A stretch of 64,000 nucleotides of DNA, taken from the NCBI GenBank assembly GCA_040757555.1, contig JBFLWN010000001.1, positions 53,128 to 117,127 on the forward strand. The letters are read 5' to 3'. Numbering within the stretch: position 1 is the first letter of the stretch; the number at the start of each line of letters is the position of its first letter. The notes under the pieces are model-generated. The model saw nothing but the letters and a program-made list of their open reading frames with translations, was not told the DNA's origin and searched no databases. The DNA comes from Patescibacteria group bacterium. Lineage in GTDB: Bacteria > Patescibacteriota > Minisyncoccia > UBA6257 > GWB1-50-10. A program made the position numbers and the translations under genes. This document shows positions 3,714 through 47,815 of the stretch, one piece after another.

Positions 3714-3941
3714 AAAATCCGCCGAATGGCGGATTCTTTTGTGCCGCGGGGGTGAATCGCCCGCGACTCAAATACTCGCCGTCGCTCGTATTTGGTCTGG
3801 GCACCACCTCGCGGTGTAATGTGCTCATTACACAACGCTCCGGTGTTCGATTTACCACACACACACAAAGCAGTTTGTGTGCTCCCCGACAAAACAAAAT
3901 CCGCCGAATGGCGGATTCTTTTGTGCCGCGGGGGTGAATCG
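3714..3941 (-). repeat. tRNA-Phe-linked mini-element B: 136-bp structured core bounded by perfect 46-bp direct repeats (3714-3759, 3896-3941) = last 18 nt of tRNA-Phe + trailer hairpin
   Basis: Direct sequence comparison; core homologous to elements at 40.7 kb and 47.7 kb. Confidence 0.8.
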
Positions 3942-3995
3942 AACACCCGACGCCAGCCTCTTCAGGGCTGCGCTCTACCACTGAGCTACCGCGGC
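3924..3995 (-). tRNA. tRNA-Phe (GAA)
   Basis: Cloverleaf; anticodon loop CTGAAGA. Confidence 0.9.
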
Positions 3996-4124
3996 ATTTC
4001 AATTGTCAATTTCTACATATTCGAGAATACCATACACATTTTTGTTTTTCAATTACCGACGAAAATTCATTTATTTAGTGCAACAATTAATGTTATACTT
4101 AAAAAACAATACAGGTTATAGATC

Positions 4125-4823
4125 ATGGAACAAAAAAACAAACAACCCGTTCTCACGGTAGAAGATCTCTCCCTTGTGATCGACGGAAAGAAAATACTGA
4201 AGGATATTTCATTTTCTATAATCCCGGAAGAAGTACTCGCCATTATCGGACCCAACGGATCCGGAAAATCTATGCTTCTCAAAACTCTTGTGGGTATCCG
4301 CACCCCAACATCAGGAACCATCACGTGGGCGCCCAATACGAAAGTTGGATATCTTCCTCAACGATTTCAAGTCGATCATTATCTCCCGATGACTATAGAA
4401 GAATTTCTATCGCTCAAAAAAAATCCTGAATATTCACTAAGTGAAGTTTTTTCACTTGTAAAAATAGAAAAGGGGTGGCGCACGAAAAATCTCGCCCATC
4501 TTTCAAGTGGACAATTGCAAAAAATACTTCTCGCATGGGCGGTTATTGATAAACCAGAGATACTTCTTTTTGATGAACCGATGGAAAATGTCGATATTGC
4601 TGGGCAAGAATCGATTTATCGTCTTCTTTATGAACTCCAGGAGACGCTCCATGTCGCCCTTGTTATCGTTTCACATGATTTAAATCTCGTGTATCGCTAT
4701 GCCGACCAAGTGCTTTGTCTCAACCAAAAAATGCTCTGCTACGGGGCACCACATGATGAACTTACCGAAAAAAGGATAAAAGAACTATTCGACACCCATA
4801 CACTTTTCCATCATACCCACTAA
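4125..4823 (+). CDS. Metal (Zn/Mn-type) ABC transporter ATP-binding protein
   Basis: Walker A GPNGSGKS, signature LSSGQ, Walker B LLFDEP. Confidence 0.8.
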   Translation: MEQKNKQPVLTVEDLSLVIDGKKILKDISFSIIPEEVLAIIGPNGSGKSMLLKTLVGIRTPTSGTITWAPNTKVGYLPQRFQVDHYLPMTIEEFLSLKKNPEYSLSEVFSLVKIEKGWRTKNLAHLSSGQLQKILLAWAVIDKPEILLFDEPMENVDIAGQESIYRLLYELQETLHVALVIVSHDLNLVYRYADQVLCLNQKMLCYGAPHDELTEKRIKELFDTHTLFHHTH

Positions 4824-4826
4824 TTT

Positions 4827-5597
4827 ATGACTGACTATTTTATTTACACGCTTATCTCCGGTGCATTTGTCGCTATTGCGAGCGGACTTATTGGTTCGTT
4901 TCTTGTGTTAAAAAAAATGACGCTTATGAGCGACGCACTTTCACACGTCGCGCTTCCCGGTATCGCGCTCGGAGTAATTTTCAAGTTTGAACCAATCATC
5001 GGAGGCCTCTTATTCCTCTTCCTCTCGATTATTCTCATCTGGGGAATAGAAAACAAGACAAAACTCGCCACCGAATCGATTACCGGCGTTCTTTTTGTGA
5101 CTGCACTTGCGGTAGGTTCAATACTCATCAGTGAAACAGAACTTCTCGAAGCGTTTTTTGGAAATGTCGAAGATATTTCTCCTCTACAACTCCTTATTCA
5201 AACAATTATCGCAATTGGGATTATTGGTATTGTCGCAAAGAATTTCAAGTCACTTATGCTCGTTTCTATCGCTCCCGATCTCACCTACTCCGAAAAAATA
5301 TCGCGAACAAAACTAGAACTCCTTCTCCTTGTTCTCATTGCACTCACCATTTCGATTGGAATTGGTTTCGTGGGAGTGCTCCTTATGAGCGCACTTTCAA
5401 TCATTCCTGCCGTTACTGCGCGGAATCTCTCAAGAAATCTCAAGATGTATATATGGTGGAGTATGTTTATCGCAACTCTATCACTCATCGGAGGAATAAT
5501 CATTTCACACTTCACCCAATCAATGAATCCCGGTGTTGCCACTGTCCTTATTAGTACATTCTTCTTTTTGATAAGTCTCTTCGGAATAAGAAAATAA
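4827..5597 (+). CDS. ABC-3 family metal transporter permease (ZnuB-like)
   Basis: 8 predicted TM segments, adjacent to ATPase; terminator hairpin 5607-5632. Confidence 0.7.
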   Translation: MTDYFIYTLISGAFVAIASGLIGSFLVLKKMTLMSDALSHVALPGIALGVIFKFEPIIGGLLFLFLSIILIWGIENKTKLATESITGVLFVTALAVGSILISETELLEAFFGNVEDISPLQLLIQTIIAIGIIGIVAKNFKSLMLVSIAPDLTYSEKISRTKLELLLLVLIALTISIGIGFVGVLLMSALSIIPAVTARNLSRNLKMYIWWSMFIATLSLIGGIIISHFTQSMNPGVATVLISTFFFLISLFGIRK

Positions 5598-5635
5598 AAA
5601 AATACCCTTACTTTTCTGTAGGGTATTTTATTCTT

Positions 5636-5854
5636 TTAATCTTCTGATTCTTGGGGTCTTTCTTTTTTTACAAAACACTTCTTTCTTGTGCATTTAAATT
5701 CCTCTTTTCCTCTGTACGGAACACCCGTGTGGCGCTTATTATGTTCTCTTTCAATAAGTTTTGTGAGAAATTCCTCAATAGGTATTTCATCTTCATTCGC
5801 AAGATTTGTTACCAATTCGGCGATTTTTCCGGTAAGTACAATGCTCTCTGCCAT
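5636..5854 (-). CDS. Hypothetical small protein
   Basis: ORF only; start set at internal Met (MAESIVL) because longer ORF runs into the tRNA. Confidence 0.3.
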   Translation of the reverse strand: MAESIVLTGKIAELVTNLANEDEIPIEEFLTKLIEREHNKRHTGVPYRGKEEFKCTRKKCFVKKERPQESED

Positions 5855-5955
5855 TGATACCTCCTTTTTATTATTGATAATTCTGAAAAAACTATACTCC
5901 AAACAAAAGGGGAAAACAATAAACACCGCAAGAATGCGGTGTTTATTGTTTTTTG

Positions 5956-8041: not shown

Positions 8042-8066
8042 GATAGGAGGAAATATTCCTCCTTAT

Positions 8067-8193: not shown

Positions 8194-8267
8194 GCGGGTG
8201 TAGCTCAGCTGGTTAGAGCGTCCGCCTGTCACGCGGAAGGTCGCCGGTTCAAGTCCGGTCGCCCGCG
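8194..8267 (+). tRNA. tRNA-Asp (GTC)
   Basis: Cloverleaf; anticodon loop CTGTCAC. Confidence 0.85.
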
Positions 8268-8479
8268 CAAGCAAATATAGAACTGTCCTAAATGGGCAGT
8301 TTTATATTTATTCTGTACGACTGGACTTGAACGGGAAAGGGGTCGGGAAAACGGAAGTTTTCCCGTGGTGGAGCACATGAACCGCTAGGTTCATGAGAGT
8401 GATATTATTCAATATCGCGATGTGAAATGTCCTCGCCCGCGCAAGCAAATATAGAACTGTCCTAAATGGGCAGTTTTAT
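8259..8479 (+). repeat. tRNA-Asp-linked mini-element D: 127-bp core bounded by 47-bp direct repeats (8259-8305, 8433-8479) = tRNA-Asp acceptor 3' strand + trailer hairpin
   Basis: Direct comparison; core homologous to element E at 45.2 kb including two hairpins with compensatory changes. Confidence 0.8.
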
Positions 8480-10985: not shown

Positions 10986-13031
10986 TCACAAAAGAAGTGC
11001 AAGAAATTCTTTTTCATTCAATATCTTGACGCCAAGTTTTTTTGCTTTTTCTATTTTTGAACCAGGATGCTCTCCTGCCACTACGAAACTAGTTTTTGAT
11101 GATACCGTTTCCGATGCCTCTCCTCCTAATGATCGCACCCGCTCTTTTGCCTCTTCTCTTTCGAGAGAGCTAAGTGTTCCGGTAAAGACAAACGTTTTTC
11201 CGAAAAGTTTTTTCTCCTTATTCTTTTTTTCTTTTATAAAACGTATTCCTATGGTATCAAATTTTTCAATCAGTTTCTTGTTTTTTTCTTGAGAAAACCA
11301 AGAAAAAATACTTTCCGCGACCTTAGGACCGATGTCGGGAATTTGTTGTAATGAATCTTTTGATAGTTTCGAAATAACCGAAAATATATCTTTTGGTGAT
11401 TGTACACCCCTTCCTTCACATGTTTTTTCTGCAAGTAACCGAGCTGTTTCTTCTCCCACATGTAAAATCCCGAGACTATATAAAAAACGTGGAATGGTAA
11501 TATGCTTCTTTGTTTCTATCTCTCGTATAATATTGTCGGCTGATTTTTCTCCGAATCTTTCGAGCACCGCAATATCCCCTTTTTTCAAAACAAAAATATC
11601 TGACGCATCAGAAATTAATCCCTCATCTAAAAATCGATCAACAACCTTTTGACCAAGACCACGAATATCAAACGCCCCACGAGAAACAAAGTGATAAAGC
11701 TGTTCCTTGTGACGCGCGCCACATGTTGTATTTGCACATCGATACAGTGCACCCTCCTCGATTATTTTTCCTCCGTCTGCAGGACAACGCGTCGGCATCT
11801 TGAATATCTTTTCTCTTCCTGTCCTCAATTCAGGAAGCACGCGGACAATTTTTGGAATGACGTCGCCGGCACGATTCACAATAACCGTATCCCCAATTTT
11901 TACCCCTAGTCGTCGAATTTCATCATAATTATGTAGCGTTGCGTGTGTGATGGTAACTCCCCCGACAAACACCGGCCTTAGTTCGGCAACAGGAGTAAGT
12001 ACTCCCGTACGTCCAACCTGAATCTTAATTTCCTCAACAATTGTCGTAGCCTCTCGAGGAGAAAATTTATAGGCAATTGCCGCACGGGGTGCTTTTCCCA
12101 CAACCCCCCCACGTTCAAAAACAATATTGTTATTCTCAATAACCACAATTCCATCAATTTCGTATTCGAGTCCATCACGTTTTTTTTCCCACATATTTCG
12201 AAAACGAAACACCTCCTCAAGTGATTTTACCTTTTTGTCATGTGGATTTATCACAAATCCCCATGATGCAAGTATTTTATGTTTTTCTTCGTGTGTGACA
12301 ATCGGAAAATCAGTTTTTGTTGCAATATCATATTGAAACGAGTTTAATTTCCGCAATGCAGTGATTGACGAATCGAGTTGTCGCACAGAACCCGCCGCAA
12401 GATTTCTGGTGTTCACAAATGGTTTCAATCCTTTTTTTTCCTGCTCTTTATTAATCCGAAGTAATTCTTTTTTCGTAATAAAAATTTCTCCCCGTACGGT
12501 CAGGTTTTGTGGAATTGGCCATTTTCCGAGTTGGGTAAGAGTTTTGGGAATAGTAGGAATTGTTTTTATATTTTCCGTGATATCCTCACCAATATATCCA
12601 TCTCCTCGGGTTGATCCTTGTATTAAAATGCCCCCCTGATACTGCAACTCAATCGCCAACCCATCAATCTTCAATTCACAATAGAACCCCTTATCCCCCT
12701 CTTTTTCTCCACGTGAGGCAAGATAATTTTTTACCCGTTCCTGCCATTCATACATTTCTTCTTCGGAAAATGCATCGTTAAACGAAAGCATGGGGGTCTC
12801 GTGTGATACCTTTTCAAACTTTTCGAGTATACTTCCTCCCACCCTTTGTGTTACTAAATTGTCTTTTATGAGCTCGGGATGTGTCTTTTCAAAAGTTTTC
12901 AATTCGTTGTTTAATGCATCAAAGGCCGCATCAGAAATTTCCGGCGTATCAAATGTATAATAGAGCATCCGATGATACTCAATAAGTTTTTGTAATTTTA
13001 TAATTCGCTCTCGTATCTCATCGTGTTTCAT
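10986..13031 (-). CDS. ligA: NAD-dependent DNA ligase
   Basis: Adenylation motif 'KIDGLAI', Zn-finger cysteines, HhH and BRCT C-terminus. Confidence 0.9.
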   Translation of the reverse strand: MKHDEIRERIIKLQKLIEYHRMLYYTFDTPEISDAAFDALNNELKTFEKTHPELIKDNLVTQRVGGSILEKFEKVSHETPMLSFNDAFSEEEMYEWQERVKNYLASRGEKEGDKGFYCELKIDGLAIELQYQGGILIQGSTRGDGYIGEDITENIKTIPTIPKTLTQLGKWPIPQNLTVRGEIFITKKELLRINKEQEKKGLKPFVNTRNLAAGSVRQLDSSITALRKLNSFQYDIATKTDFPIVTHEEKHKILASWGFVINPHDKKVKSLEEVFRFRNMWEKKRDGLEYEIDGIVVIENNNIVFERGGVVGKAPRAAIAYKFSPREATTIVEEIKIQVGRTGVLTPVAELRPVFVGGVTITHATLHNYDEIRRLGVKIGDTVIVNRAGDVIPKIVRVLPELRTGREKIFKMPTRCPADGGKIIEEGALYRCANTTCGARHKEQLYHFVSRGAFDIRGLGQKVVDRFLDEGLISDASDIFVLKKGDIAVLERFGEKSADNIIREIETKKHITIPRFLYSLGILHVGEETARLLAEKTCEGRGVQSPKDIFSVISKLSKDSLQQIPDIGPKVAESIFSWFSQEKNKKLIEKFDTIGIRFIKEKKNKEKKLFGKTFVFTGTLSSLEREEAKERVRSLGGEASETVSSKTSFVVAGEHPGSKIEKAKKLGVKILNEKEFLALLL

Positions 13032-13613: not shown

Positions 13614-14222
13614 TTATTGAGATCTTCTACATTGATACGGATCAGTACTTATTTCTATTGGAAGAATTCTCATACTTACCGCCGTCTCAATGTATGTTCG
13701 TGTATCAGATTTTGAGTCTTTTGGTTTCACCGAAAGCGCCACCCCAATTCTCCACGGATTACAATTATAGTCGGGATGTGCTGATGGATTCGTGGATTTT
13801 TTGTATTGTTGTACTCGAAAACAAAGTGTCTCCACTGATACATTCTTTCCGGTGATATTCTCTCCATTTTTTTGTATCGCCTTGTTCGCGTATGAATATG
13901 TTACTGTCTCCCCGTCGACACTCGGATCGTTTGTCTGCATTGTTCGAAATGAAATAGAAGAAAGACATGGTTCGGTATTTATTTGAGGTAGTAATGCTTC
14001 ATATTGAGAGATATCAAAATATCCCATACGTATCTCTCGAGCCATCTGTTCAAGGATGAGATTCAAATTGTTGTTCACCGACATGAGATCAGTGAGATCT
14101 CTCTGTGCCTTTATTCCACTTACAAAGACCCCAATCGCAAGTGACATAAGAATTCCAAACACTGCCATTGCAACCAATAGTTCAACAAGTGTAAATCCTT
14201 TTTTGTTATTTTTTATATCCAT
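13614..14222 (-). CDS. Type IV pilin-like protein (pseudopilin / minor pilin)
   Basis: Prepilin motif 'KKGFTLVELLVA' after short leader. Confidence 0.75.
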   Translation of the reverse strand: MDIKNNKKGFTLVELLVAMAVFGILMSLAIGVFVSGIKAQRDLTDLMSVNNNLNLILEQMAREIRMGYFDISQYEALLPQINTEPCLSSISFRTMQTNDPSVDGETVTYSYANKAIQKNGENITGKNVSVETLCFRVQQYKKSTNPSAHPDYNCNPWRIGVALSVKPKDSKSDTRTYIETAVSMRILPIEISTDPYQCRRSQ

Positions 14223-14229
14223 CGTTCGC

Positions 14230-14748
14230 TTATTTTTCCCTCCAATTTTGGAATATTTCTTCAAGGTTTACGACGCTTCTTTCTCCATTTATTACCCACT
14301 CAACCTCGGATTTTATTGTCATCTCGTTTCCTCCGCTTCCCACCGTCACTGTACGTTTGTAGGGCGTTTCCTTTCCCGCTGCATTATATCCATAGAGCCC
14401 AGTTACTTCATTGAGCCATAGCGCTGTTGTTGAAGAACCAAATATTTCAGTTAATCCGAGGTCTTTATCGGTATCATATTGAACCTCATAGTTTTGATTA
14501 TGGTCGAGTGTTGAATTAAAAAAAACACTTTCAGGAATTGCCACATCGGTATCAATAATATGTTTCATAATCTCTATCCCCTCCGCCGCGAGATATGTCG
14601 CTTCAAATCGATGTACTACATTCTTATTCATACTTGTCGAATGGATAAGGAGTGAAAAAATACCGATAAGCCCAACCATAATAAGTGTGGCGGTTACCAT
14701 AAGTTCAACCATTAAACTCCCTTTTTTATTTTTTATCAGTGAATACAT
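14230..14748 (-). CDS. Type IV pilin-like protein (minor pilin)
   Basis: 'KKGSLMVELMV' prepilin-like N-terminus. Confidence 0.65.
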   Translation of the reverse strand: MYSLIKNKKGSLMVELMVTATLIMVGLIGIFSLLIHSTSMNKNVVHRFEATYLAAEGIEIMKHIIDTDVAIPESVFFNSTLDHNQNYEVQYDTDKDLGLTEIFGSSTTALWLNEVTGLYGYNAAGKETPYKRTVTVGSGGNEMTIKSEVEWVINGERSVVNLEEIFQNWREK

Positions 14749-14749
14749 A

Positions 14750-15250
14750 TTATTGTGTTGAAATCCCCCCCACACTACTTACCACCACATCCGCTTTTAA
14801 TATCGGGGATGATCCACTTACGTGCAATTCAACCGTCTTCCCTCCTTCAAGTACTTTTATATATGGGCCCTCAAATGTGATTTGTCCGGGGGAATTTGCA
14901 ATAACTATTGGGGTGTTCATAGTAAACATCTCTCCATATGATATCGCTTGAGTCTCATCACACGTTGCATACGGCTGGCCACTTACTTGAATATTTGGAA
15001 CTTGTATAATTTCATATGTATTGGATCCGGTAAACCGCACCCCATATGCACAGACGGTTTCTGCCATATTTCTCTGTAGTGCAAGTGATTTTGCTCTATT
15101 TAAAATTCCAATTAATTTTGCCTGTTCGGTATAGAGCGTAATCTGCTTTCCCGAAGATCGTGTATAGGCAATTAGGGTAGTGGTAAGCACCATCAAAATA
15201 CCAATAACCACGAGAGTTTCCACCAATGTAAATCCTCCGTTCTTCTTCAT
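14750..15250 (-). CDS. Type IV pilin-like protein (minor pilin)
   Basis: 'GGFTLVETLVVIGIL' prepilin N-terminus. Confidence 0.75.
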   Translation of the reverse strand: MKKNGGFTLVETLVVIGILMVLTTTLIAYTRSSGKQITLYTEQAKLIGILNRAKSLALQRNMAETVCAYGVRFTGSNTYEIIQVPNIQVSGQPYATCDETQAISYGEMFTMNTPIVIANSPGQITFEGPYIKVLEGGKTVELHVSGSSPILKADVVVSSVGGISTQ

Positions 15251-15284
15251 TACCCTTTATTCTAGCAAAAAAAACCGTTCCTCT

Positions 15285-16187
15285 CTATAGATTAAAAAGA
15301 GAGAAATATCCTTTGATGAGATCAAAACCAAAAAATATGGTAATTACAAATGCAACAACAAAAAACGGTCCAAAAGGAAGTTTGTCTTTCATTGTCTTTT
15401 TTTTTGAAAAATAGAGCGCCGCAGCCCATACCCCCCCGAAAATAAAGGCGATCATGCTCGTCAATATGACGTCGGGCCACCCCAACACGATTCCAGAGGC
15501 AAATGCGAGTTTTACATCACCCATTCCCATTCCCCTGCCATTACTTACGAGAAAGAGAAAGAGGAAAAAAAGTCCCGCACCAAAAAACCCAAGAATGTGG
15601 TTATAATATATATTTTGAAATGGTGAAAATATGAGCGCATAATTTCTCATAAACGATTCACGAAAAGGAAGAATGTGGGCTGTATTTGCCACAAAAAGGA
15701 ATATAAGTAGTATTCCCAATATGAAAATAAAAATATTCAATCCGTCGGGAATAATGTAATGGTGTAAATCAATAACAAAAATAAGAAGAAGAGAAAGAAA
15801 TATGAGAATCCAAACAAAAATGAAAAGATAATAGACTCCTGGAGCTAAGAGAGAAACGAAGAGGGTATTTTGTACTCCAAAAAATGAATTCAAAAAAAGC
15901 GGAACAAGAACAAAGGTAGCACCACTTAAAAATTCAACAATCGGGTATTGAAAAGAAATTTTTTCTCCACACGAAGAACATTTCCCCCGAAGAAATAAAA
16001 AACTGAAGAGAGGGATAAGTTCTTTTACTTCAAGTGTTTTTTGACATGACATACAATGCGATCGTCCTGATATCTTTTTTATATCAAAAAATCTCCCCTC
16101 GGGAGAATAACGGAGAATAAGTACATTTAAAAAACTTCCGATTGCGAGACCAAAGAGAAATAAACAAACAAAAACAACTGATGTCAT
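15285..16187 (-). CDS. pilD: Prepilin peptidase (A24 family)
   Basis: Tetracysteine CxxC...CxxC cytoplasmic loop, multi-TM; in pilus operon. Confidence 0.8.
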   Translation of the reverse strand: MTSVVFVCLFLFGLAIGSFLNVLILRYSPEGRFFDIKKISGRSHCMSCQKTLEVKELIPLFSFLFLRGKCSSCGEKISFQYPIVEFLSGATFVLVPLFLNSFFGVQNTLFVSLLAPGVYYLFIFVWILIFLSLLLIFVIDLHHYIIPDGLNIFIFILGILLIFLFVANTAHILPFRESFMRNYALIFSPFQNIYYNHILGFFGAGLFFLFLFLVSNGRGMGMGDVKLAFASGIVLGWPDVILTSMIAFIFGGVWAAALYFSKKKTMKDKLPFGPFFVVAFVITIFFGFDLIKGYFSLFNL

Positions 16188-16249
16188 AAAAAAATTATAT
16201 CATAGATATAAAAAAACACCCCTCACACGGGGTGTTTTTGAAGACATAA

Positions 16250-16654
16250 TTACGGGGCTGGAGTACACGCGCTTCCACTTGCTGTTCCCATACCACTGAA
16301 TCCAGTACTATCGGCACAAAAAGTTTTTGTAGCATCGCTCTTGAGCGGCGCCGAAATTACATATTCATTCGTGGCGTCCCCGGTGTGGGTAAGTGTACTG
16401 TCTTGTGCGGTCACATCATCTTCAAGTTGACCTAATTTTGTCGTCGTCTCTGCACTTAATTCGTAAGTTCCCTTGGTAGCATCATAACTCGCTTCATAGA
16501 GTGCTCTTGCTTGCTGAACTGCACCCATAATCCTTGAGTCTCTTGCTTTGTCTCGTGATGGACCGAGTGCGACCAATACCGTAGCTGATAAAATACCAAT
16601 GATTGCAACCACAACCAACATTTCGATAAGTGTAAAACCTTTATTATTTTTCAT
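16250..16654 (-). CDS. pilA: Type IV major pilin
   Basis: 'NKGFTLIEMLVVVAIIGIL' class III signal; C-terminal Cys pair. Confidence 0.8.
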   Translation of the reverse strand: MKNNKGFTLIEMLVVVAIIGILSATVLVALGPSRDKARDSRIMGAVQQARALYEASYDATKGTYELSAETTTKLGQLEDDVTAQDSTLTHTGDATNEYVISAPLKSDATKTFCADSTGFSGMGTASGSACTPAP

Positions 16655-16704
16655 ATAAAATCAAAATTTGCTCGACCTTATGTATTGTATTTATTATACC
16701 AAAT

Positions 16705-17910
16705 TTAGAAACTTTGTGTGAGGCTGTAAAGTGGAAGAAGAATTGAGGCAAAAAGGAGTGCAACTCCACCTCCAATCAATACCATGAGCGCCGGCTGGAT
16801 GAGCGTAACTAAATTATCCACCATGTCTTCAATTTCACGCGTATAAAAATCATTTATTTTTTTAAGCAAATCTTCGAGTCGTCCCGTCGATTCTCCAATA
16901 CTGATAAGTTGTGGAACAAGAGGAGGAAATTCCTCAATTCCCTCAAGGATTTTTGATAGTAACTTTCCTTTTCGAATTTCCGAAGACGCATTTTGTAGAA
17001 GATTTTGATATACCACATTCCCGATTGTTCGCGAAGAAATTTCAATTGCTTGTGGAATAGTAAGCCCCCCCTTAATCAGCACGCGTGTCGACTCCGCAAA
17101 GCGGGCAATATACATTTTCTGAAATAATTTTCCAATAATAGGGAGTCTTAAACTCAATTCATCAAATACAATTTTTCCCTCTTTACTTTGAAAATAATCA
17201 ATGAGAACAAACACAAATACCCCGAACATAATAAGTGTTGCCCACCACCATGTGCTCACAAACGCGCCAAAACTCACCAACATCTTTGTATAGAATGGGA
17301 GCTCAACCTTTGCTTCCTCAAAAATCGGCATAATTTGAGGAATAACAAACGTCACCATAACAAGGATTACTATAAAAAACAGCACAATGACAAACGCGGG
17401 GTAAAAGAGTGCGTTTTTGACCTTCGACTTAAGGATGGCCTGTTTTTCGAGATAGTCAGCCAAGAAATCCAATACCTCTCCCAATCGCCCCGTAACCTCT
17501 GCTGATCTCACCATGTTCACATAAAAATCAGAAAAAATCCCCGGATGTTTTTCGAGTGCTTGTGAAAGCGAAAACCCCGCATTCACATCATTTCCCACAT
17601 CATAAATTGTTTCTTTTAAAATCGGGTTTGTTGTTTGTTTATATAGGTTCGTCAAACTATCCGAAAGAGACACTTGAGAAGCAATAAGCGTTGCAAATTG
17701 ACGGGTAAACACCATAACATCCGATGTTTTTATGCGCTTCAAAAATCCAAGTATACGGTCATACCATTGATCCCCCCTCATCTCTTCCAAATTCAAAATA
17801 AAAAGCCCATGACTCAACAAAATATTGAGTGCAGTATCTCGGTTTGTTGCCTCCACATTACCCACTTGAAGCTCTCCTTCTTTTGTTCGTGCTTTATAAT
17901 TAAATTTCAT
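16705..17910 (-). CDS. pilC: Type IV pilus assembly platform protein PilC (GspF family)
   Basis: Two GspF repeats, 3 TM. Confidence 0.85.
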   Translation of the reverse strand: MKFNYKARTKEGELQVGNVEATNRDTALNILLSHGLFILNLEEMRGDQWYDRILGFLKRIKTSDVMVFTRQFATLIASQVSLSDSLTNLYKQTTNPILKETIYDVGNDVNAGFSLSQALEKHPGIFSDFYVNMVRSAEVTGRLGEVLDFLADYLEKQAILKSKVKNALFYPAFVIVLFFIVILVMVTFVIPQIMPIFEEAKVELPFYTKMLVSFGAFVSTWWWATLIMFGVFVFVLIDYFQSKEGKIVFDELSLRLPIIGKLFQKMYIARFAESTRVLIKGGLTIPQAIEISSRTIGNVVYQNLLQNASSEIRKGKLLSKILEGIEEFPPLVPQLISIGESTGRLEDLLKKINDFYTREIEDMVDNLVTLIQPALMVLIGGGVALLFASILLPLYSLTQSF

Positions 17911-17976
17911 TGAATTTATAAACCTCTTGTTTTAACCATCTGAATTTTTGAGATTTGAGATTTAAAATTTTACTTT

Positions 17977-19047: not shown

Positions 19048-19076
19048 ATGAGTGGTATTTCTTTTATTATAAATGA

Positions 19077-20828: not shown

Positions 20829-20899
20829 ATAAAATAAAATATGTCACTACTTCGATGGAGAGCGATAGAAAAGAGAAAAAATGAGACCCGCCTCTCCAT

Positions 20900-21193
20900 T
20901 TAGAACGGCTTAAACGGATTTTCTCTTCCAGGTATCTGCGTCGAAGTAGTACTTGATCCATATTGGCGAAGCGATTTAAACGAAGGTGAATTTACTACAT
21001 CTTCTGGTTTAAACGAGATCTTTGAAAGTTTATTTATCTGGTCGAGTTTTCCAGGGGTTGCCATTTCGATCACGTCGGGTCTCTTAAAAAATAAAAAGTA
21101 TGCACCGGAAAATACCACCACCACAATGACAAGTACTACCACCACCATAAACCAATTTACCGATTTTTTTTCTTCCTCAACGATAATAGCCAT
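20900..21193 (-). CDS. Hypothetical small membrane protein in pilus operon
   Basis: Single TM, ORF only. Confidence 0.4.
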   Translation of the reverse strand: MAIIVEEEKKSVNWFMVVVVLVIVVVVFSGAYFLFFKRPDVIEMATPGKLDQINKLSKISFKPEDVVNSPSFKSLRQYGSSTTSTQIPGRENPFKPF

Positions 21194-21196
21194 AAT

Positions 21197-21760: not shown

Positions 21761-21762
21761 AA

Positions 21763-22326: not shown

Positions 22327-22329
22327 GTG

Positions 22330-40637: not shown

Positions 40638-40720
40638 TGTTTAAGTATAAATGTTTTTAACAACAATCCCAAATTTATCCGCTTATGACGGAGGGAATCC
40701 TCTTCCCCTATTCACAACTA

Positions 40721-40865
40721 GGGGGAATCGCCCGCGACTCAAAATGTTTCCGTCGAAACATTTTGGCCCGGGCACCGCCTCGCGTACTCGTCTACTGACT
40801 CACATACACTCCGGCGTTCGATTCACCACGCGAAACAAGCAGTTGTTTCGCTTTGGGACAAAATA
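40721..40865 (-). repeat. tRNA-Glu-linked mini-element A (core homologous to B and C; only 9-nt tRNA 3'-end copy remains)
   Basis: Aligned by eye to elements B and C; sits 3' of tRNA-Glu after its terminator hairpin. Confidence 0.7.
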
Positions 40866-40893
40866 AAAAACCTGGTAGGTTTTTTATTCTTTG

Positions 40894-40965
40894 TAGTCCC
40901 AAGGGGAATCGAACCCCTATTTCCGCCGTGAAAGGGCGATGTCCTAACCGTTAGACGATGGGACC
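40894..40965 (-). tRNA. tRNA-Glu (TTC)
   Basis: Cloverleaf; loop CTTTCAC. Confidence 0.85.
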
Positions 40966-44191: not shown

Positions 44192-44196
44192 TATAT

Positions 44197-44450: not shown

Positions 44451-45179
44451 GTGGAAAAAAATGAAAAATATTTTGTATGGAGTTTTATATTCGAATCCGA
44501 TCTCATTGAACAAATTCCTAACAACCGACAACAACTTCGCGATGATATCATTGCCGAGAAACAAGATGGACACGTTGGCGCTATTCTCTTCGCTCGCTCT
44601 AAGGCAGACAAACAAGAGATGATTGATGAGGATTTTATAAAAACCATCCAGAAACTGATTTGTGCCGAACAACACCTGAAGGGCGCAAAGAAAATGAAAG
44701 ATGAAACAATTGGAAAATATCGTGAAGGAAATGTATCCGTGGTTTCAAAATATCCTGTATTTACAACCGGAGGAATTACATGGGTTAAAAAAATTTTGAA
44801 AAAAGGACCAGATCCAAGGCTTGTCCCCAAATTGATGGAAGAATGGGTAGAAAGTGTTCTGGAGTGGGAGAAAAATTTCAAATCATTTTCACCGGAAGAA
44901 AACGTGAAAAGAATTGCGGATTTCCATTTTGATTTTGAAGATATTCATCCATTTGCTGATGGCAACGGAAGAACCGGGAGAATACTTACCTACTACATGC
45001 TCCGCTACGCAAAACTCAATCAATTTATCTTTTGGGAATGCACAAAATCATACGATTATTATCCGGCATTCAAAGATAAAAAATTAATGCAAGAATATTT
45101 TCGAATTCACATATTTGAATCAAGAAAAATAGCTGGAAGAGTTGAATCGCTCACTGAAGATGAAATTGTCATATTTTAA
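44451..45179 (+). CDS. Fic/Doc family protein (AMPylase-type)
   Basis: 'HPFADGNGRTGR' Fic motif; GTG start, true start uncertain. Confidence 0.75.
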   Translation: MEKNEKYFVWSFIFESDLIEQIPNNRQQLRDDIIAEKQDGHVGAILFARSKADKQEMIDEDFIKTIQKLICAEQHLKGAKKMKDETIGKYREGNVSVVSKYPVFTTGGITWVKKILKKGPDPRLVPKLMEEWVESVLEWEKNFKSFSPEENVKRIADFHFDFEDIHPFADGNGRTGRILTYYMLRYAKLNQFIFWECTKSYDYYPAFKDKKLMQEYFRIHIFESRKIAGRVESLTEDEIVIF

Positions 45180-45210
45180 TACAGAAAATCCGCTTAAAAG
45201 CGGATTTTTA

Positions 45211-45395
45211 TTTGTGCCCGGGGTCGGACTCAAACAAAATTTCATAAACGAAATTTTTTGAAACCTTGCGGTTCCAATACCTCCACCACGGGGAAACTCC
45301 TGTTTCCCCGACCCCTTTTCCGTTCAGGGCCGGCTAAAATAAAAAACAATTGCATTAAATACAATTGTTTTTCTGTTTGTGCCCGGGGTCGGACT
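45211..45395 (-). repeat. tRNA-Leu-linked mini-element E: 143-bp core bounded by 21-bp direct repeats (45211-45231, 45375-45395) = tRNA-Leu 3' end + CAAA
   Basis: Direct comparison; core homologous to element D. Confidence 0.8.
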
Positions 45396-45462
45396 CGAAC
45401 CGACACGTCCTTGCGGACAACAGATCTTAAGTCTGTCGTGGCTGCCATTACACCACCCGGGC
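45380..45462 (-). tRNA. tRNA-Leu (TAA)
   Basis: Long variable arm; loop CTTAAGA. Confidence 0.85.
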
Positions 45463-45548
45463 GTTTTTTAATTCTTTTATATTCTGTTTCAATTTTGAAT
45501 AAAAAACAAGCGCCTTCATTCAACGAAAGCGCTTCTCATAGACAAGCG

Positions 45549-45621
45549 AGGTGTGGGCTGGATTCGAACCAGCGCATGACGGTTTTGCAGACCGCCGCGT
45601 TCACCACTTCACCACCACACC
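45549..45621 (-). tRNA. tRNA-Cys (GCA), copy 1
   Basis: Cloverleaf; loop CTGCAAA; discriminator U. Confidence 0.75.
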
Positions 45622-45643
45622 AAATATGTAAAAGAGCTTTTGG

Positions 45644-45715
45644 AGGCCTGAGTGGGAATCGAACCCACGTATAAGAGTTTTGCAGACTCTTGCCTTACCA
45701 CTTGGCTATCAGGCC
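45644..45715 (-). tRNA. tRNA-Cys (GCA), copy 2 (divergent body)
   Basis: Cloverleaf; loop CTGCAAA. Confidence 0.75.
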
Positions 45716-46021
45716 TTATTCTTCATTCTCGCGCTTATGCGTATCAATTTCAAATTTCAAATGGGGCACCGCGCGAATTCTCATCTTCTTCAATAACTGG
45801 TGTTCCAATTGTTTCTTTTTCGAATCAATTGCAAAAAACGCCTCTAATTCTTTTTCATAAGGAATTATAGAAAGCATTACTTTCGCTTGCAAGAGATCTT
45901 CGGAAACCTCAACCGATGTGATAGTCACGAGTGCGTTATCAACTTCGCAGTCTTCAAGAATCATTTGCGAAAGTTCCTGCTCAATGAGACTCCCCATTTT
46001 AAGGTTACGGTATGGGCGCAT
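45716..46021 (-). CDS. rbfA: Ribosome-binding factor A
   Basis: ~100 aa, conserved RbfA profile, downstream of infB. Confidence 0.75.
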   Translation of the reverse strand: MRPYRNLKMGSLIEQELSQMILEDCEVDNALVTITSVEVSEDLLQAKVMLSIIPYEKELEAFFAIDSKKKQLEHQLLKKMRIRAVPHLKFEIDTHKRENEE

Positions 46022-46027
46022 ATAAAT

Positions 46028-47476
46028 TTAAATAAAAATAAGTGTATCCCCGATGCGAATATCAATATCACTTTCCGCTAACAGTCCCGCTTCAACTCCC
46101 GTCTCTGCTGATGAGACATCTTTTCTTCCTGACTGAAGATTTAAAATTTTTCCACTTCCAATTAATTTCCCTCCTCTCCATAAATCAAAAGTGCCCTGAT
46201 TTTTCACTGGTCCGAGAATTACTTTTCCTCCTACAATTCGTTCCTTCCCCTTTCCTCCAAATACTCCCAATATTTCAATACTCGGCATTTCCTTCGGATT
46301 CCTTCTTTTTATGTATTCAATCAACTCTTTCTCAAGTTCATAAATGATATCAGACTGAATCATCATCACTTTTTCATTTCGCGCCATATTGAGCGCTGCC
46401 TTATCTACCCTCACTTTAAATCCAAGAATAATTCCATGTGTACTCTGCGCAAATTTTATATCGGTTTCATAAATATCTCCGACACTTGCTGATGCGATAA
46501 TAATCGGCCGATCGCTCGGAATGCGTTCCGCAATTCCCCTTACCGCCTCCAAGGATCCCGCTTCGTCTGCTTTCACCACCAACGAAATAGTTGCTTCTTC
46601 TTTTATATTTTTTCCAAGTCCGGTTTGCACCGATGTATTCCCTACATGAAGTTTTTTTATTTCGTCTCCGCACACAAACTGCTCTCCAACTTCAGGAAGT
46701 GTTTCAAACCCAAGAATAAGTGCAGGGGCACTTGGCACAAGTGATTTTGCTGATTTCCCGAGAAAATCATTTAATATTTTTATCTTTCCCTTTGCACTCT
46801 TTGTGGCGATGACTTCCCCTTGAGATAGTGTTCCGTTTTTCACAATCACTCCCACAATTCCTCCGCGACGCGGATCAAGCTTACTTGTGATCACAACTCC
46901 CGTTGGACTTGCGGACGGATCATATGAGAGATCCTGCATCTCCGATGCGAGGATAACTAAATCCAAAAGATCGTTTACTCCTTCTCCGGTTTTCGCTGAA
47001 ATCGGATGCCACGACACATCTCCTCCAAATCCCTCGAGATACAGTCCAATATTTGCGAGATCGGATTTCGTCTTCTCAATATTCGCGTTTGGTTTATCAA
47101 TTTTATTGATTGCAACAATGCACGTGATATTTTCTTTTTTTATATATTCAAGCGCATTCTGCGTTTGTGGTTTCACCCCATCGTCGGCAGCCACCACGAG
47201 AATTGCGAGATCGGCGATACGCGCACTGTGTTCTCGCATCTTCGAAAATGCCTCATGTCCCGGGGTATCGATAAATGTAATTTTGCTTCCTTTGTGAGTA
47301 ATCTCATACGCCCCAATAGACTGAGTGATTCCTCCTGCCTCCTTTTCTGCCACGGTGGTTTTGCGGATATAATCAAGAAGCGTGGTTTTTCCATGATCCA
47401 CATGTCCCATAACTGCGATGACTGGAGGACGTTTTTCCATGTTTACAACCGTAACAGAGAAAACACATAAATACAA
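46028..47476 (-). CDS. infB: Translation initiation factor IF-2 (short form: G domain to C-terminus only)
   Basis: 'VIAVMGHVDHGKTTLLD' G1, 'DTPGHEAF' G3, 'NKIDK' G4; likely start at MEKRPP (47440). Confidence 0.85.
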   Translation of the reverse strand: MYLCVFSVTVVNMEKRPPVIAVMGHVDHGKTTLLDYIRKTTVAEKEAGGITQSIGAYEITHKGSKITFIDTPGHEAFSKMREHSARIADLAILVVAADDGVKPQTQNALEYIKKENITCIVAINKIDKPNANIEKTKSDLANIGLYLEGFGGDVSWHPISAKTGEGVNDLLDLVILASEMQDLSYDPSASPTGVVITSKLDPRRGGIVGVIVKNGTLSQGEVIATKSAKGKIKILNDFLGKSAKSLVPSAPALILGFETLPEVGEQFVCGDEIKKLHVGNTSVQTGLGKNIKEEATISLVVKADEAGSLEAVRGIAERIPSDRPIIIASASVGDIYETDIKFAQSTHGIILGFKVRVDKAALNMARNEKVMMIQSDIIYELEKELIEYIKRRNPKEMPSIEILGVFGGKGKERIVGGKVILGPVKNQGTFDLWRGGKLIGSGKILNLQSGRKDVSSAETGVEAGLLAESDIDIRIGDTLIFI

Positions 47477-47541
47477 GAAAAACCATAATAAATCTACTTG
47501 AATGCAGATCTGTTTTGCATTATTCTCAATTGGTAAGTCTT

Positions 47542-47628
47542 GGAGGCGTGGCTGAGTGGTTTAAAGCGGCATCCTGCTAAGATGTCGACCGGGAAACCGG
47601 TCCGAAGGTTCGAATCCTTCCGCCTCCG
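47542..47628 (+). tRNA. tRNA-Ser (GCT)
   Basis: Long variable arm; loop CTGCTAA. Confidence 0.85.
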
Positions 47629-47815
47629 CAAGAAAACAGCGCATTTATGTGCTGTTTTTGTATGCGGATGCGGGAGCGAGACAACTGCTTGTCTCGCGTC
47701 CGGATTCGAACGCCGGAGCATGCGCAACTCAGTAGAATTGCACGCGAGGCGGTGGCTAGACAAATTCTCTCTGACGAGAGAGAATTTAGTCAAAGCCGAA
47801 TCCTTCCGCCTCCGC
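47611..47815 (+). repeat. tRNA-Ser(GCT)-linked mini-element C: 168-bp core (includes tRNA terminator hairpin) bounded by 19-bp direct repeats (47611-47629, 47797-47815) = tRNA T-loop/acceptor 3' strand
   Basis: Direct comparison; core homologous to A and B. Confidence 0.8.

Follow-up and report, generated by a model that had tools for sequence, protein, structure and literature searches.

Gene-less structured units behind tRNA genes of Patescibacteria: candidate integrative mini-elements with a target-antisense segment

In integron attC sites and in the attP site of CTX phage, a folded single strand mimics a double-stranded target, and the same logic may apply to the units described here. For classical double-strand integrases, a target-antisense segment and a covarying fold are both dispensable, and a plain site of that kind is hard to reconcile with the target-antisense segment of these units. 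IS110 bridge RNAs, the EBS-IBS pairing of group II introns and trans-splicing group I ribozymes with a replacement 3′ exon offer possible models for a guide that works by base pairing. We analyzed a window of 64,000 nucleotides (nt) from a Patescibacteria group bacterium, in which a first-pass annotation, having rightly guessed a CPR host, had described five elements, each lying 3′ of a different tRNA gene. The tRNA genes were placed with ARAGORN and Rfam, and their positions agreed with that description (Table 1). No ORF was found inside any unit of the window. In every unit the gene end is followed by a spacer or terminator, a segment antisense to the gene end, a folded core and, in displaced position, the gene end once more.

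Table 1. Positions of the five units and of the tRNA genes that they follow (DR1 and DR2, first and second gene-end copies)
Feature	Coordinates	Strand	Basis
tRNA-Phe(GAA), target gene of element 1	3923..3995	-	ARAGORN, Rfam
DR1, Phe unit: tRNA nt 56 to 3′ end plus terminator hairpin	3891..3941	-	repeat search
Terminator-like site inside DR1, Phe unit	3919-3896		
Subfamily-1 folded element behind tRNA-Phe (P1 hairpin, GGAGCG/CGCGAGG junction, P3, P4/P5; terminates in tRNA part of DR2)	3742..3890	-	model R1 147.9 bits, E 5e-38; sequence
Phe element, anti-acceptor segment	3881-3890		
Phe element, T-loop antisense segment	3845-3856		
DR2, Phe unit: second tRNA-Phe 3′ end plus terminator	3709..3759	-	51 nt, 96%
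tRNA-Asp(GTC), target gene of element 2	8194..8268	+	ARAGORN, Rfam
DR1, Asp unit: tRNA-Asp 3′ end plus terminator	8259..8305	+	47 nt, 100%
Subfamily-2 core behind tRNA-Asp (GGGAAAGGGGT, hairpin 1, GTGGTGGAG, hairpin 2 (GAACCGCTAGGTTC), GAGTGAT-hairpin-ATCGCGA module)	8306..8432	+	sequence; alignment with 42 relatives
Asp core, antisense copy of tRNA-Asp T arm, CGACTGGACTTGAAC	8318-8332		
DR2, Asp unit	8433..8479	+	repeat search
tRNA-Glu(TTC), target gene of element 3	40893..40965	-	ARAGORN, Rfam
Subfamily-1 element behind tRNA-Glu	40713..40859	-	model R1 147.8 bits; sequence
Glu element, T-loop antisense segment	40816-40827		
DR2, Glu unit: shrunk to CGATTCCCC	40722-40730	-	
tRNA-Leu(TAA), target gene of element 4	45379..45462	-	ARAGORN, Rfam
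Leu unit: spacer with terminator hairpin, then subfamily-2 core	45236..45369	-	sequence, alignments
Leu core, antisense segment	~45322-45334		
DR2, Leu unit: 21 nt exact copy of tRNA-Leu 3′ end, then different terminator	45205..45235	-	
tRNA-Ser(GCT), target gene of element 5	47542..47629	+	ARAGORN, Rfam
DR1, Ser unit	47611-47634		
Subfamily-1 element behind tRNA-Ser, closing in DR2	47664..47815	+	model R1 159 bits, E 6e-41; sequence
Ser element, T-loop antisense segment CCGGATTCGAAC	47700-47711		
DR2, Ser unit	47797..47820	+	repeat search

Direct repeats of the tRNA 3′ end closed four of the five units, as had been claimed. They measured 51 nt for Phe and 47 nt for Asp, both with the terminator included, 31 nt for Leu (90% identity, 21 nt exact) and 24 nt for Ser (92%, 19 nt exact); in the Glu unit, the repeat search returned nothing of 12 nt or longer, and only CGATTCCCC is left. 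Across the family, the repeat usually spans C56 in the T loop to the tRNA end: of 76 repeats, 41 started 18 to 19 nt ahead of the tRNA end and 39 stopped at position 0 or +1. The two copies had an identical acceptor 3′ strand in 106 of 132 cases.

The cores fall into the two subfamilies proposed at the outset. Column identity was 74 to 76% within subfamily 1 (Phe, Glu and Ser) and 76% within subfamily 2 (Asp and Leu), and perfect matches to the subfamily-defining motifs numbered three or two in the window; by dinucleotide shuffling, only ~1.6 to 2.3 matches to the two subfamily-1 boxes were expected, even with two mismatches allowed. When a covariance model was derived from the subfamily-1 copies (Phe, Glu and Ser), it matched these three and nothing else in the window, with E values of ~1e-37 or below. 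The compensatory stem changes noticed in the window were greatly extended by homologues: among those of subfamily 1, 86.8% of cells were paired, versus 34 to 44% in a control with partners slid, compensatory double changes occurred at 52 of 54 pairs, and the covariation score was 0.49 versus 0.06 in the control. Hairpins 1 and 2 of subfamily 2 covary as well, and a GNRA loop was present in 26 of 41 hairpin-1 loops. The fold is under strong purifying selection across CPR classes. Read on the tRNA strand, G.U pairs far outnumber A.C pairs in P1, P3 and P5, and the fold contains tandem G.A pairs; together with the GNRA loops, these signatures suit a transcript better than DNA.

One feature of the first description did not hold, namely, a T-arm-like hairpin, since its CCGG/CCGG stem is fully formed in only 12 of 102 family members. 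The segment so named is antisense to the T loop and T stem of the tRNA itself; the first-pass annotation made no mention of a target-antisense segment. In the Glu element, the anti-acceptor GTCCCAA complements the tRNA-Glu 3′ strand TTGGGAC, and in the Ser element, GCGGATGCGGGAG pairs at 12 of 13 positions with CTTCCGCCTCCGC. Cognate duplexes of anti-acceptor and repeat were stronger than noncognate ones (p = 2e-4), and where tRNA and DR2 differ, the antisense segment agreed with the tRNA at 72 positions and with DR2 at 13. Between the window and the relative L120, three parts of the orthologous Asp locus have changed in concert: the T stem of the tRNA, the antisense segment and DR2. The rnhA sites of L164 and L173 differ by a compensatory change (GGATT/AATCC versus GGGTT/AACCC). 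In tRNA units, the segment also complements G53 to T55, which lie to the left of the repeat. L140 contradicts a simple definition of the unit, as its antisense segment and DR2 match a tRNA-Asp allele other than the resident gene.

Ends of tRNA genes were the commonest target. A same-strand tRNA ended less than 400 nt upstream, mostly at 22 to 100 nt, in 97 of the 126 subfamily-1 matches listed, and an upstream tRNA was present in 41 of 56 subfamily-2 matches; the former lie behind tRNAs of at least 35 anticodons and the latter of at least 24. The ends of typA, rnhA and rpsI are also occupied, in either orientation. The two gene-end copies differ at three positions, all synonymous, at the typA 5′ end in L131; they read MNNKLFGLNKVIIYTDGGARGNPG versus MKKQLFNLNKIVIYTDGGARGNPG at rnhA in L164 and RRPQQWRKR* versus RRSIWRKR* at rpsI in L132. 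These synonymous or conservative differences show that one of the two copies is of foreign descent.

Comparison with relatives revealed that orthologous tRNA genes are occupied in some genomes and empty in others. The tRNA-Asp element is shared with L120 (89% identical) and absent from the 76% and 72% relatives L124, L121 and L122, in which the next gene begins 18 to 53 nt past the tRNA. Leu-taa and Glu-ttc are occupied in the window and empty in L103 and L117; the reverse holds for Gly-gcc. Ser-gct is occupied in the window, L057, L103 and L117, and its occupancy persists between relatives whose genes are only ~65% identical. Among the relatives compared, no filled allele had a clean, highly identical empty counterpart. 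In L117, a mixed array follows tRNA-Gly, in which a subfamily-1 unit and a subfamily-2 unit each possess their own repeat and terminator; same-type tandem arrays are present in L053, L055, L063 and L168.

The occupancy differences, the tandem arrays, the C56-to-end repeat, the use of protein-gene ends and the lack of ORFs all speak for the first of two interpretations offered initially, non-autonomous mini integrative elements. We therefore consider it probable that the units are ORF-less, non-autonomous integrative mini-elements that restore the gene end and are mobilized in trans. The mobile unit would comprise four parts: a copy of the end of a highly conserved gene (mostly tRNA nt 56 to 73), a spacer (in the form of an intrinsic terminator or of a linker of the GAACGAAGTGAG type), the antisense segment and the folded core. 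It would enter at a fixed point of the T loop, near nt 55 to 57, and displace the original gene end (DR2) beyond the core, where it would slowly decay; the target gene would stay intact because its end would now be supplied by the copy that the element brings (DR1). The reaction may be a conservative site-specific recombination with the enzyme supplied in trans, and the substrate recognized may be the gene-end/antisense hairpin together with the adjacent folded core, on a single strand of gene-end polarity. The 47- to 51-nt repeats of the Asp and Phe units, which include the terminator, can be accommodated only by additionally assuming that a second unit follows in truncated form; in the Phe unit, DR2 probably marks where such a remnant begins, and comparable second units, likewise truncated, occur in L089 and L063. 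As for the tRNA-targeting recombinase postulated earlier, targets are not limited to tRNAs and no enzyme was identified: among the window genes scanned, Pfam revealed no tyrosine recombinase and only a large serine recombinase fragment at the window edge, and neighbor-gene clustering returned only tRNA-syntenic genes (YraN, CCA-adding enzyme and LepA). In a few copies, variable cargo genes separate the core from the tRNA or from the tRNA's repeat; they encode a PEP-utiliser-domain protein and an IS30 transposase. In L109, genes for a reverse transcriptase and a hydrolase are located between two units.

Alternatively, core and antisense segment could form an RNA or single-stranded DNA guide, or a ribozyme, that selects the target by pairing and is inserted by a trans-acting enzyme or by itself. 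We regard this as unlikely, even though the antisense segment tracks the target (T loops of every isotype, rnhA and rpsI) and extends over G53 to T55, the order antisense-scaffold-distal target copy is that of a 3′-exon-replacing ribozyme, the fold has RNA-type signatures and the element is accompanied by no protein gene. Exon replacement at the RNA level would be senseless at typA and rnhA, where the unit is antisense to the gene, and pairing of the segment with the element's own gene-end copy would mask a guide. Moreover, the repeat-adjacent helix in L131 is built of element rather than target sequence, Rfam revealed no resemblance to introns of group I or group II or to known ribozymes, and reverse transcriptases are not regularly nearby (1 of ~120 loci by tblastn).

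The second initial interpretation, a tRNA-linked noncoding RNA generated by 3′-end duplication, gains from the conserved fold and its RNA-like signatures, but such an origin of the repeats is disfavored. In its wider form, a host-beneficial RNA co-transcribed with tRNAs for processing, stabilization or as a decoy would mimic the tRNA 3′ half with its ends and spread slowly by duplication or recombination among tRNA genes. Strong selection on the fold, a DR2 that in most cases has not diverged from the tRNA end and the Ser-gct copy kept in divergent relatives agree with this, and the persistence of such sites could indeed mean a host function; in addition, many subfamily-1 copies have no terminator between tRNA and element and one behind the element. 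Nevertheless, all subfamily-2 copies and the subfamily-1 copies of the window have an intrinsic terminator directly upstream and no promoter-like site. Copies at protein-gene ends in either orientation, variable occupancy of the same tRNA among relatives without a preferred isotype, mixed tandem arrays and copies persisting with a decayed DR2 (the Glu unit of the window and L103) likewise argue against a host RNA, which we consider quite improbable.

It is very unlikely that the units spread, instead of by a recombinase, by repair of a double-strand break (such as a homing-endonuclease cut) with an occupied allele as template, or by natural transformation and recombination of the incoming DNA, with the gene body as left homology arm and DR2 as right arm. 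The targets are conserved sequences of the kind used by homing systems, one gene-end copy is foreign, and the window encodes type IV pilus genes, which typically belong to DNA-uptake machinery. A LAGLIDADG-like endonuclease family, whose profile matches I-DmoI (E = 0.002), adjoins tRNAs in these genomes: its gene separates tRNA-Glu from the core in L004, stands alone behind tRNA-Glu in L117 and is absent from L057 and L103. However, the family occurs in only 7 of ~175 loci, two of which (L109 and L172) may, judging from sequence context, represent genes inside tRNA introns; a right arm of 18 to 19 nt is very short for RecA, and both the fold and the antisense segment would be left unexplained.

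Degenerate tandem tRNA duplicates or tRNA pseudogenes can practically be dismissed: the 5′ flank of long forms resembles the 5′ acceptor strand of the tRNA followed by AGC and their 3′ end equals that of the tRNA, but the cores have their own covarying non-tRNA fold, are not called by ARAGORN or the Rfam tRNA model, and show homology to one another behind tRNAs of at least 35 anticodons as well as at protein genes, which refutes degenerate tRNAs of the same isotype.

Cores measure ~110 to 150 nt, and whole units, with spacer and repeat, 145 to 230 nt. No family in Rfam 15 matched them, and neither subfamily pattern was found in viral contigs. Model R1 gave 123 matches in 747 kb; a genome scan placed subfamily 1 at a minimum of 119 loci, mostly in records labeled as CPR lineages and several with other or generic labels, and subfamily 2 was present at 55 metagenome loci. 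Both are widespread and, among the matches listed, almost confined to Patescibacteria/CPR. The mobile mini-elements probably form a superfamily that spans the CPR and includes two or more related core types, and the five noncoding inserts, of 130 to 230 nt, are apparently members of a large, undescribed family of gene-less insertion elements.

Five of the 18 tRNA genes that ARAGORN and Rfam identified in the window, those for Phe, Asp, Glu, Leu(TAA), and Ser(GCT), are followed on the same strand by one of the elements, in agreement with the first-pass annotation. The direct repeats of the tRNA 3′ ends that it had described were recovered by a repeat search of the window. They measure 51 nt at 96% identity for Phe and 47 nt at 100% for Asp, both including the terminator hairpin, 31 nt at 90% for Leu (21 exact), and 24 nt at 92% for Ser (19 exact), and the Glu repeat is reduced to CGATTCCCC only. 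The 47- to 51-nt repeats of Phe and Asp probably represent the start of a truncated second unit, as in L089, L063, and L168 (L numbers designate homologous loci from other genomes and metagenomes). The proposed division into two subfamilies also held, since the three cores of subfamily 1 (Phe, Glu, and Ser) are ~75% identical in alignment and the two of subfamily 2 (Asp and Leu) likewise. When the 64 kb were searched with R1, a covariance model built from the three window copies of subfamily 1, exactly these three cores were retrieved, each with an E value of ~1e-37 or lower. Just past the shortened Glu repeat lies GAATAGGGGAAGAGGATTCCCTCCGTCA, a degenerate copy of the tRNA-Glu variable loop, T arm, and acceptor, which may be left over from an earlier insertion or from the displaced native end. 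Around the Leu element, a tandem pair of tRNA-Cys(GCA) genes, neither carrying an element, is found directly upstream of tRNA-Leu(TAA), and a gene for a Fic/DOC-domain protein converges on the element from the opposite strand.

The distribution of subfamily 1 was determined by scanning one genome per species for the conserved boxes TCGAACNCCGGAG...CGCGAGGNGGTG, which revealed at least 119 loci. Among the matches listed, most records bear labels of the candidate phyla radiation (CPR), including Saccharibacteria, Paceibacterota, and Magasanik-, Uhr-, Woese-, Yanofsky-, Kaiser-, Jorgensen-, and Kerfeldbacteria, and several have other or generic labels; a few records labeled as Gammaproteobacteria hold true subfamily-1 copies, the labels being those given in the records. 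Three matches (L027, L093, and L065) are false positives with no tRNA nearby, and in the first two the surrounding sequence is unlike the element. R1 yielded 123 matches in the window and 97 loci, and the subfamily-1 copies defined by the sequence pattern reside behind at least 35 anticodon types. The subfamily-2 pattern matched 55 metagenome loci, several of them from Hainich groundwater samples. The element family is almost exclusively specific to CPR bacteria, and the window too comes from a metagenome-assembled genome of a Patescibacteria group bacterium.

For the description of individual copies, we defined a unit as the gene end that completes the target gene (DR1), a spacer, an antisense segment, and the core, after which comes the displaced original end (DR2). 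The segment immediately preceding the core is the antisense of the cognate tRNA's T loop and T stem and covaries with that tRNA: AATCG goes with TTCGATT in tRNA-Phe and tRNA-Glu, ATTCG with TTCGAAT in tRNA-Ser, and TTGAAC with an A at nucleotide 57 in tRNA-Asp and in the tRNA-Pro of L021. Long forms contain a second antisense segment, set off by helix P1, whose pairing partners are the 3′ strand of the acceptor, the discriminator, and a few bases of the trailer. In the Ser element, 12 of its 13 positions are paired, and the cognate duplexes formed by this segment are stronger than noncognate ones (p = 2e-4). Short forms have neither P1 nor the second segment. The linker GAACGAAGUGAG is recurrent, and the linker motif (A)ACGAAGTGAG replaces the terminator directly 3′ of the tRNA at many loci with long-form units of both subfamilies (e.g., L001, L028, L034, L042, L113, and L168).

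Among 76 cases, the repeat starts at C56/G57, 18 to 19 nt short of the end of the tRNA, in 41 and stops at that end (0 or +1) in 39, and the acceptor strand is identical between the two copies in 106 of 132 cases. At positions that distinguish the tRNA from its distal copy, the antisense segment agrees with the tRNA in 72 cases and with the copy in 13. What is conserved is therefore a long hairpin composed of the gene end, the spacer, and the antisense of the gene end, and the distal copy (DR2) behaves as a relic. Because a terminator hairpin serves as the spacer in the window and in subfamily 2, it forms one extended stem with the pairing of gene end and antisense. As the native end, DR2 might be expected to pair better with the tRNA 5′ strand, yet DR1 always did so among 26 differing pairs; L004 is a single counter-example. 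An origin of DR2 by copying from mature tRNA was rejected, because CCA follows the discriminator in 16 DR2 copies versus 10 genes (9 versus 3 among discordant cases), a difference that is not significant. One subfamily-2 unit, in L140, has an antisense segment and a distal repeat that match the tRNA-Asp allele of L120 (…AATCCCATCGCCCGCGCA), and the resident tRNA-Asp upstream of it differs (…GTCCGGTCGGCTGCGC). This mismatch suggests that the tRNA gene was replaced or that the unit moved between alleles.

Occupancy of a given tRNA gene varies among relatives. The gene next to tRNA-Asp in the window has relatives at 89%, 76%, and 72% identity. A subfamily-2 unit is present in the 89% relative (L120), where the tRNA T stem, the antisense segment, and DR2 all differ in concert from their window counterparts. 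The 76% and 72% relatives (L121, L122, and L124) have no unit, and there the gene starts 18 to 53 nt after tRNA-Asp. Both L103 and L117 have small protein genes next to empty tRNA-Leu(taa) and tRNA-Glu(ttc) genes and an occupied tRNA-Gly(gcc), whereas the window shows the opposite state. Presence/absence polymorphism is thus found at orthologous Asp, Leu, Glu, and Gly sites. The tRNA-Ser(gct) site is occupied in all four genomes compared, and this copy has been long retained.

Units also occur in arrays. Tandem units of the same type were found in L053, L055, L063, and L168, and L089 carries a truncated second unit after DR2. In L117, tRNA-Gly is followed by a subfamily-1 unit and then by a subfamily-2 unit, each with its own repeat and a different terminator, and the second unit is absent behind tRNA-Gly in its close relative L103. 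Such a mixed array cannot be made by unequal crossing-over, but it can arise from successive insertion at a regenerated target.

Targets are not confined to tRNA genes. Subfamily-2 units reside at the 5′ ends of typA/bipA and rnhA (opposite strand) and at the 3′ end of rpsI (same strand), and each of these genes is intact, with a further copy of its end lying past the core. The three differences between the typA copies are all synonymous; the rnhA copies are two intact homologous N termini, both with YTDGGARGNPG; and both rpsI copies read WRKR-stop with synonymous Arg and Lys codons. As the two gene-end copies differ in the way functional sequences do, one of them comes from another lineage rather than from duplication in place followed by decay. 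At the protein-gene sites, the antisense segment is retargeted, with a compensatory change between L164 and L173.

A few units carry additional genes in the interval that separates the core from the tRNA or its repeat, namely a PEP-utilizer-domain protein (L055) and an IS30 transposase with membrane proteins (L017). L055 contains a perfect tandem duplication of a 1.8-kb unit made up of the 3′ end of tRNA-Asn with at least 36 further nt, a 463-amino-acid (aa) PEP-utilizing-enzyme mobile-domain gene, and a core of subfamily 1. Although an assembly artifact is possible, this duplication shows that genes enclosed by the repeats can be amplified through them. In L109, two subfamily-1 units at one tRNA flank a gene for a 377-aa reverse transcriptase (RVT_1, YGDD) together with a PNPOx-like gene and a gene for a serine hydrolase. 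Coordinates are compiled in the table.

Coordinates of individual features in the window and at homologous loci
Sequence	Position	Strand	Feature
Window	105-977	+	Serine recombinase, C-terminal part
Window	968-1040	-	tRNA-His
Window	13614-23430	-	Type IV pilus cluster
Window	40687-40713	-	Degenerate tRNA-Glu copy
Window	44451-45179	+	Fic/DOC-domain protein gene
Window	45548-45621	-	tRNA-Cys(GCA)
Window	45641-45715	-	tRNA-Cys(GCA)
L004	5457-6149		LAGLIDADG-like gene
L031	2170-2400		Element in tRNA-Ser(GGA)
L055	737-4443	-	Tandem duplication
L109	5248-6381	-	Reverse transcriptase gene
L117	6840-7529		LAGLIDADG-like gene
L140	~11850-12060	-	Subfamily-2 unit

The core itself adopts a conserved fold. 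In the R1 alignment, standard pairs fill 86.8% of the cells versus 34 to 44% with the partners slid, and both partners have changed in 52 of 54 pairs. The covariation score was 0.49 versus ~0.06, and the observed values were reached by none of 500 shuffles; this support is on par with that of many accepted RNA families. Furthermore, G·U far exceeds A·C in helices P1, P3, and P4/P5 (33 versus 6 in P1 and 24 versus 0 at one P3 pair), which places the structure on the tRNA strand. Tandem G·A pairs occur at the invariant junction CGCC-GGA-GCG / CGC-GA-GGCG and at the base of P5. The sequence of subfamily 2 is even more highly conserved, with the order GGGAAAGGGGU-hairpin 1-GUGGYGGAG-hairpin 2-GAG-hairpin 3-GACGU, in which hairpins 1 and 2 covary and GNRA loops are present in 26 of 41 copies of hairpin 1. 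The two subfamilies are related, since reading of the sequences revealed a GAGCGAU-hairpin-CGCGA module in both; the loop motif AACUGCUUG is also common to P1 of subfamily 1 and to some insertions in hairpin 1 of subfamily 2. More core types share the same outer architecture (e.g., L017, L054, L076, L050, and L018). The local "T-arm-like hairpin" pointed out in the first-pass annotation is not conserved across the family, and kissing of the P1 loop AACUGCUU with the loops of P3 or P5 was rejected (4.0 for cognate versus 3.9 for shuffled combinations).

Covariation beyond the controls and an excess of G·U over A·C on one strand are what a structured RNA shows in general, and a folded single-stranded DNA of the same polarity fits these data as well. 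The fold may work purely as RNA. Against this stand the intrinsic terminators located directly upstream of all subfamily-2 copies and of the window copies of subfamily 1, together with the lack of any promoter-like site there. No sigma-70-type promoter was detected directly upstream of the elements in the window, and a positional −10 signal was absent from 123 subfamily-1 upstream regions and only weakly hinted at in 48 subfamily-2 regions. The typA and rnhA copies, moreover, are antisense to the gene. Alternatively, the fold may work purely as DNA, in the form of a folded single strand, but the GNRA loops, the G·U bias, and the tandem G·A pairs are typical of RNA.

We then compared the elements with known systems. 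Integrative elements that target tRNA genes, such as islands with P4-type integrases, prophages, and the tycheposons of Prochlorococcus, resemble them in many respects: insertion in the T-loop region with a replacement 3′ end, the displaced partial tRNA as a direct repeat, tandem arrays at one tRNA, and variants at protein-gene ends with imperfect, coding-constrained repeats. The repeat begins at the T-loop crossover in most of the 76 cases, and no integrase is found inside the element. Unlike those islands and prophages, the elements have no integrase or any other gene, consist of a core of ~110 to 150 nt with a covarying strand-specific fold and a target-antisense segment, and were not found on viral contigs. 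The insertion logic is the classical one of a gene-end-restoring integrative element; what departs from the classical pattern is the gene-less, structured design with its target-antisense segment.

Integron attC sites and cassettes and the folded attP of CTX phage and IMEX share with the elements their small size, the lack of a recombinase of their own, strand specificity, and a long, imperfect hairpin in which the tip varies and the stem mimics a recombination site in double-stranded form; integrons also build arrays by repeated insertion at one proximal site. However, the RYYYAAC/GTTRRRY core boxes of attC are absent. The stem is GTTCRA...TYGAAC, in the opposite order, with GTTCRA on the 5′ arm and TYGAAC on the 3′ arm of the hairpin base, and, as read from the sequences, the nucleotides before DR2 are not GTT. 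Moreover, the targets are gene ends rather than dif or attI, and an extra conserved multihelix core is present. No intI or attI context was noticed in the flanks of 8 to 15 kb available around the loci. Identity with attC was rejected on account of the missing boxes and the reversed order at the stem base.

Structured noncoding segments that are complementary to the target and change with it are known from the bridge (seek) RNAs of IS110/IS1111 and from the EBS-IBS pairing of group II introns. Our units differ from these in having no gene for a DEDD recombinase or a reverse transcriptase, no similarity in sequence or in Rfam, and a long duplication of the distal part of the target, which is missing from those systems. 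The absence of any open reading frame (ORF) within the units and the long duplications led us to reject an IS110-type element with a bridge RNA.

MITEs, REP/BIME, and Correia-type repeats are likewise short, multicopy, noncoding, hairpin forming, and dependent on an enzyme acting in trans, and the elements described here differ from all three in strictly targeting conserved genes. MITE identity was rejected because the inverted pair is not intrinsic but derived from the target, different at every target, and because the repeats, ~18 to ~80 nt long and ending near the gene end, do not form a target duplication of fixed length.

Group I introns of Patescibacteria, which sit in the anticodon loop of tRNA genes (position 35/36), interrupt the gene, and self-splice (PMC13011429), are RNA-structured, tRNA-gene-associated insertions in the same host phylum. 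In contrast to them, the elements follow an intact tRNA, with L031 as the exception, and match no intron model of Rfam. In L031 (Candidatus Yanofskybacteria), a short-form subfamily-1 element lies in the T loop of tRNA-Ser(GGA) with no intact copy upstream, and removal of ~130 nt in silico restores the tRNA; this gene is either a pseudogene or one from which the element must be removed at the RNA level. An intron of the T loop was rejected for the family, as an intact tRNA is found upstream in 100 of 129 subfamily-1 motif matches (window included) and only that of L031 is interrupted.

The suggestion that the cores belong to no known family was upheld by Rfam 15, which at the gathering threshold returned the 18 tRNAs only for the window (the models included tRNA, tmRNA, group I/II introns, and self-cleaving ribozymes) and showed nothing over the cores in the Ser and Asp regions at E values up to 10. 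A full-text literature search retrieved no description of the elements, the only paper found being an unrelated one on group I introns in Patescibacteria tRNAs. A tRNA pseudogene or a tandem duplicate of the same isotype was rejected, given that neither ARAGORN nor Rfam calls the cores as tRNA and that homologous cores lie behind tRNAs of at least 35 anticodons as well as at protein genes. Phage origin was dismissed because both subfamily patterns had 0 matches in 2.9 million viral contigs.

Candidate mobilizing enzymes were sought within and around the elements. The window units are 145 to 230 nt long and contain no ORF, no tyrosine recombinase was present among the window genes scanned, and no tyrosine or serine integrase was found among the cargo genes (PEP-utilizer-domain protein, IS30 transposase, reverse transcriptase, and hydrolase). 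A LAGLIDADG-like family of ~200 to 255 aa, with an N-terminal helix-turn-helix and the motif LYWGEG...NSDP, adjoins some tRNAs; the proteins have no significant Pfam match at default thresholds, and their profile matches the LAGLIDADG endonuclease I-DmoI (E = 0.002). Seven loci carry it (L004, L117, L038, L085, L109, L168, and L172), of which two may, to judge from the sequence context, be intron borne. The gene is located inside the unit, between tRNA-Glu and the core, in L004 and is free-standing after tRNA-Glu without a core in L117; it is absent in L057 and L103. As a general mobilizer this endonuclease was rejected, since it is restricted to 7 loci and stands alone in L117. A link to the reverse transcriptase was rejected too, because tblastn finds the enzyme only in L109 among L001 to L124 and the window, and the recurrent neighbor proteins obtained by clustering ~175 loci (UPF0102/YraN, CCA-adding enzyme, and LepA) reflect synteny with particular tRNAs. 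In an ORF at the window edge, beside tRNA-His, a large serine recombinase is matched over its C-terminal part only (Recombinase and Zn_ribbon_recom domains), and the N-terminal catalytic domain would either precede the window start or be missing; this fragment may be a sign of another integrated element at tRNA-His. The window also contains a type IV pilus cluster with three prepilin-type N-terminal-methylation proteins, a prepilin peptidase, a T2SS-F platform protein, two T2SS-E ATPases, and PilM. Type IV pili are typically part of the DNA-uptake machinery in CPR bacteria.

Taken together, the units possess a strand-specific conserved fold and a hairpin arm antisense to the target, with no gene of their own. 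We infer that they insert at a fixed point in a conserved gene, which is restored by the element-borne end while the native end is displaced. The process is probably conservative site-specific recombination with an enzyme supplied in trans, for which the recognized substrate would be the single-stranded hairpin of the gene end and its antisense together with the core. By analogy with integron attC or CTX-phage attP, the folded strand would mimic the double-stranded target. A single strand exchange at nucleotides 55 to 57 between a folded circle and the tRNA gene would yield exactly the observed order of tRNA, DR1, spacer, antisense segment, core, DR2, and native flank. More speculatively, and in our estimate less likely than not, the fold and the target-antisense segment could be the active part of a gene-less, "programmable" module of ~130 nt that directs guided or self-structured integration. 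Conserved gene ends would then be recognized by base pairing, either as RNA or as folded single-stranded DNA, and insertion would be helped by a possibly housekeeping enzyme, with the hit gene repaired meanwhile.

These elements have practical consequences for annotation, as their repeats create partial tRNA fragments and duplicated gene starts or ends that can mislead gene callers, and their presence or absence provides a ready-made strain marker for CPR metagenomes. If base pairing sets the target, they would be of direct interest for programmable DNA insertion. CPR bacteria, or Patescibacteria, account for a large share of bacterial diversity, and their mobile DNA and noncoding RNAs are almost unknown. 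The family described here has hundreds of detectable copies, is found behind a substantial proportion of tRNA genes (5 of 18 in the window), and may supply terminators behind tRNAs. It poses the question of which enzyme moves a structured unit of 130 nt and why that unit carries an antisense copy of its own target. Guided integration, if true, would make it a minimal system native to ultrasmall CPR bacteria and categorically new; if mobile as proposed, its members would be the smallest known gene-end-restoring integrative elements.
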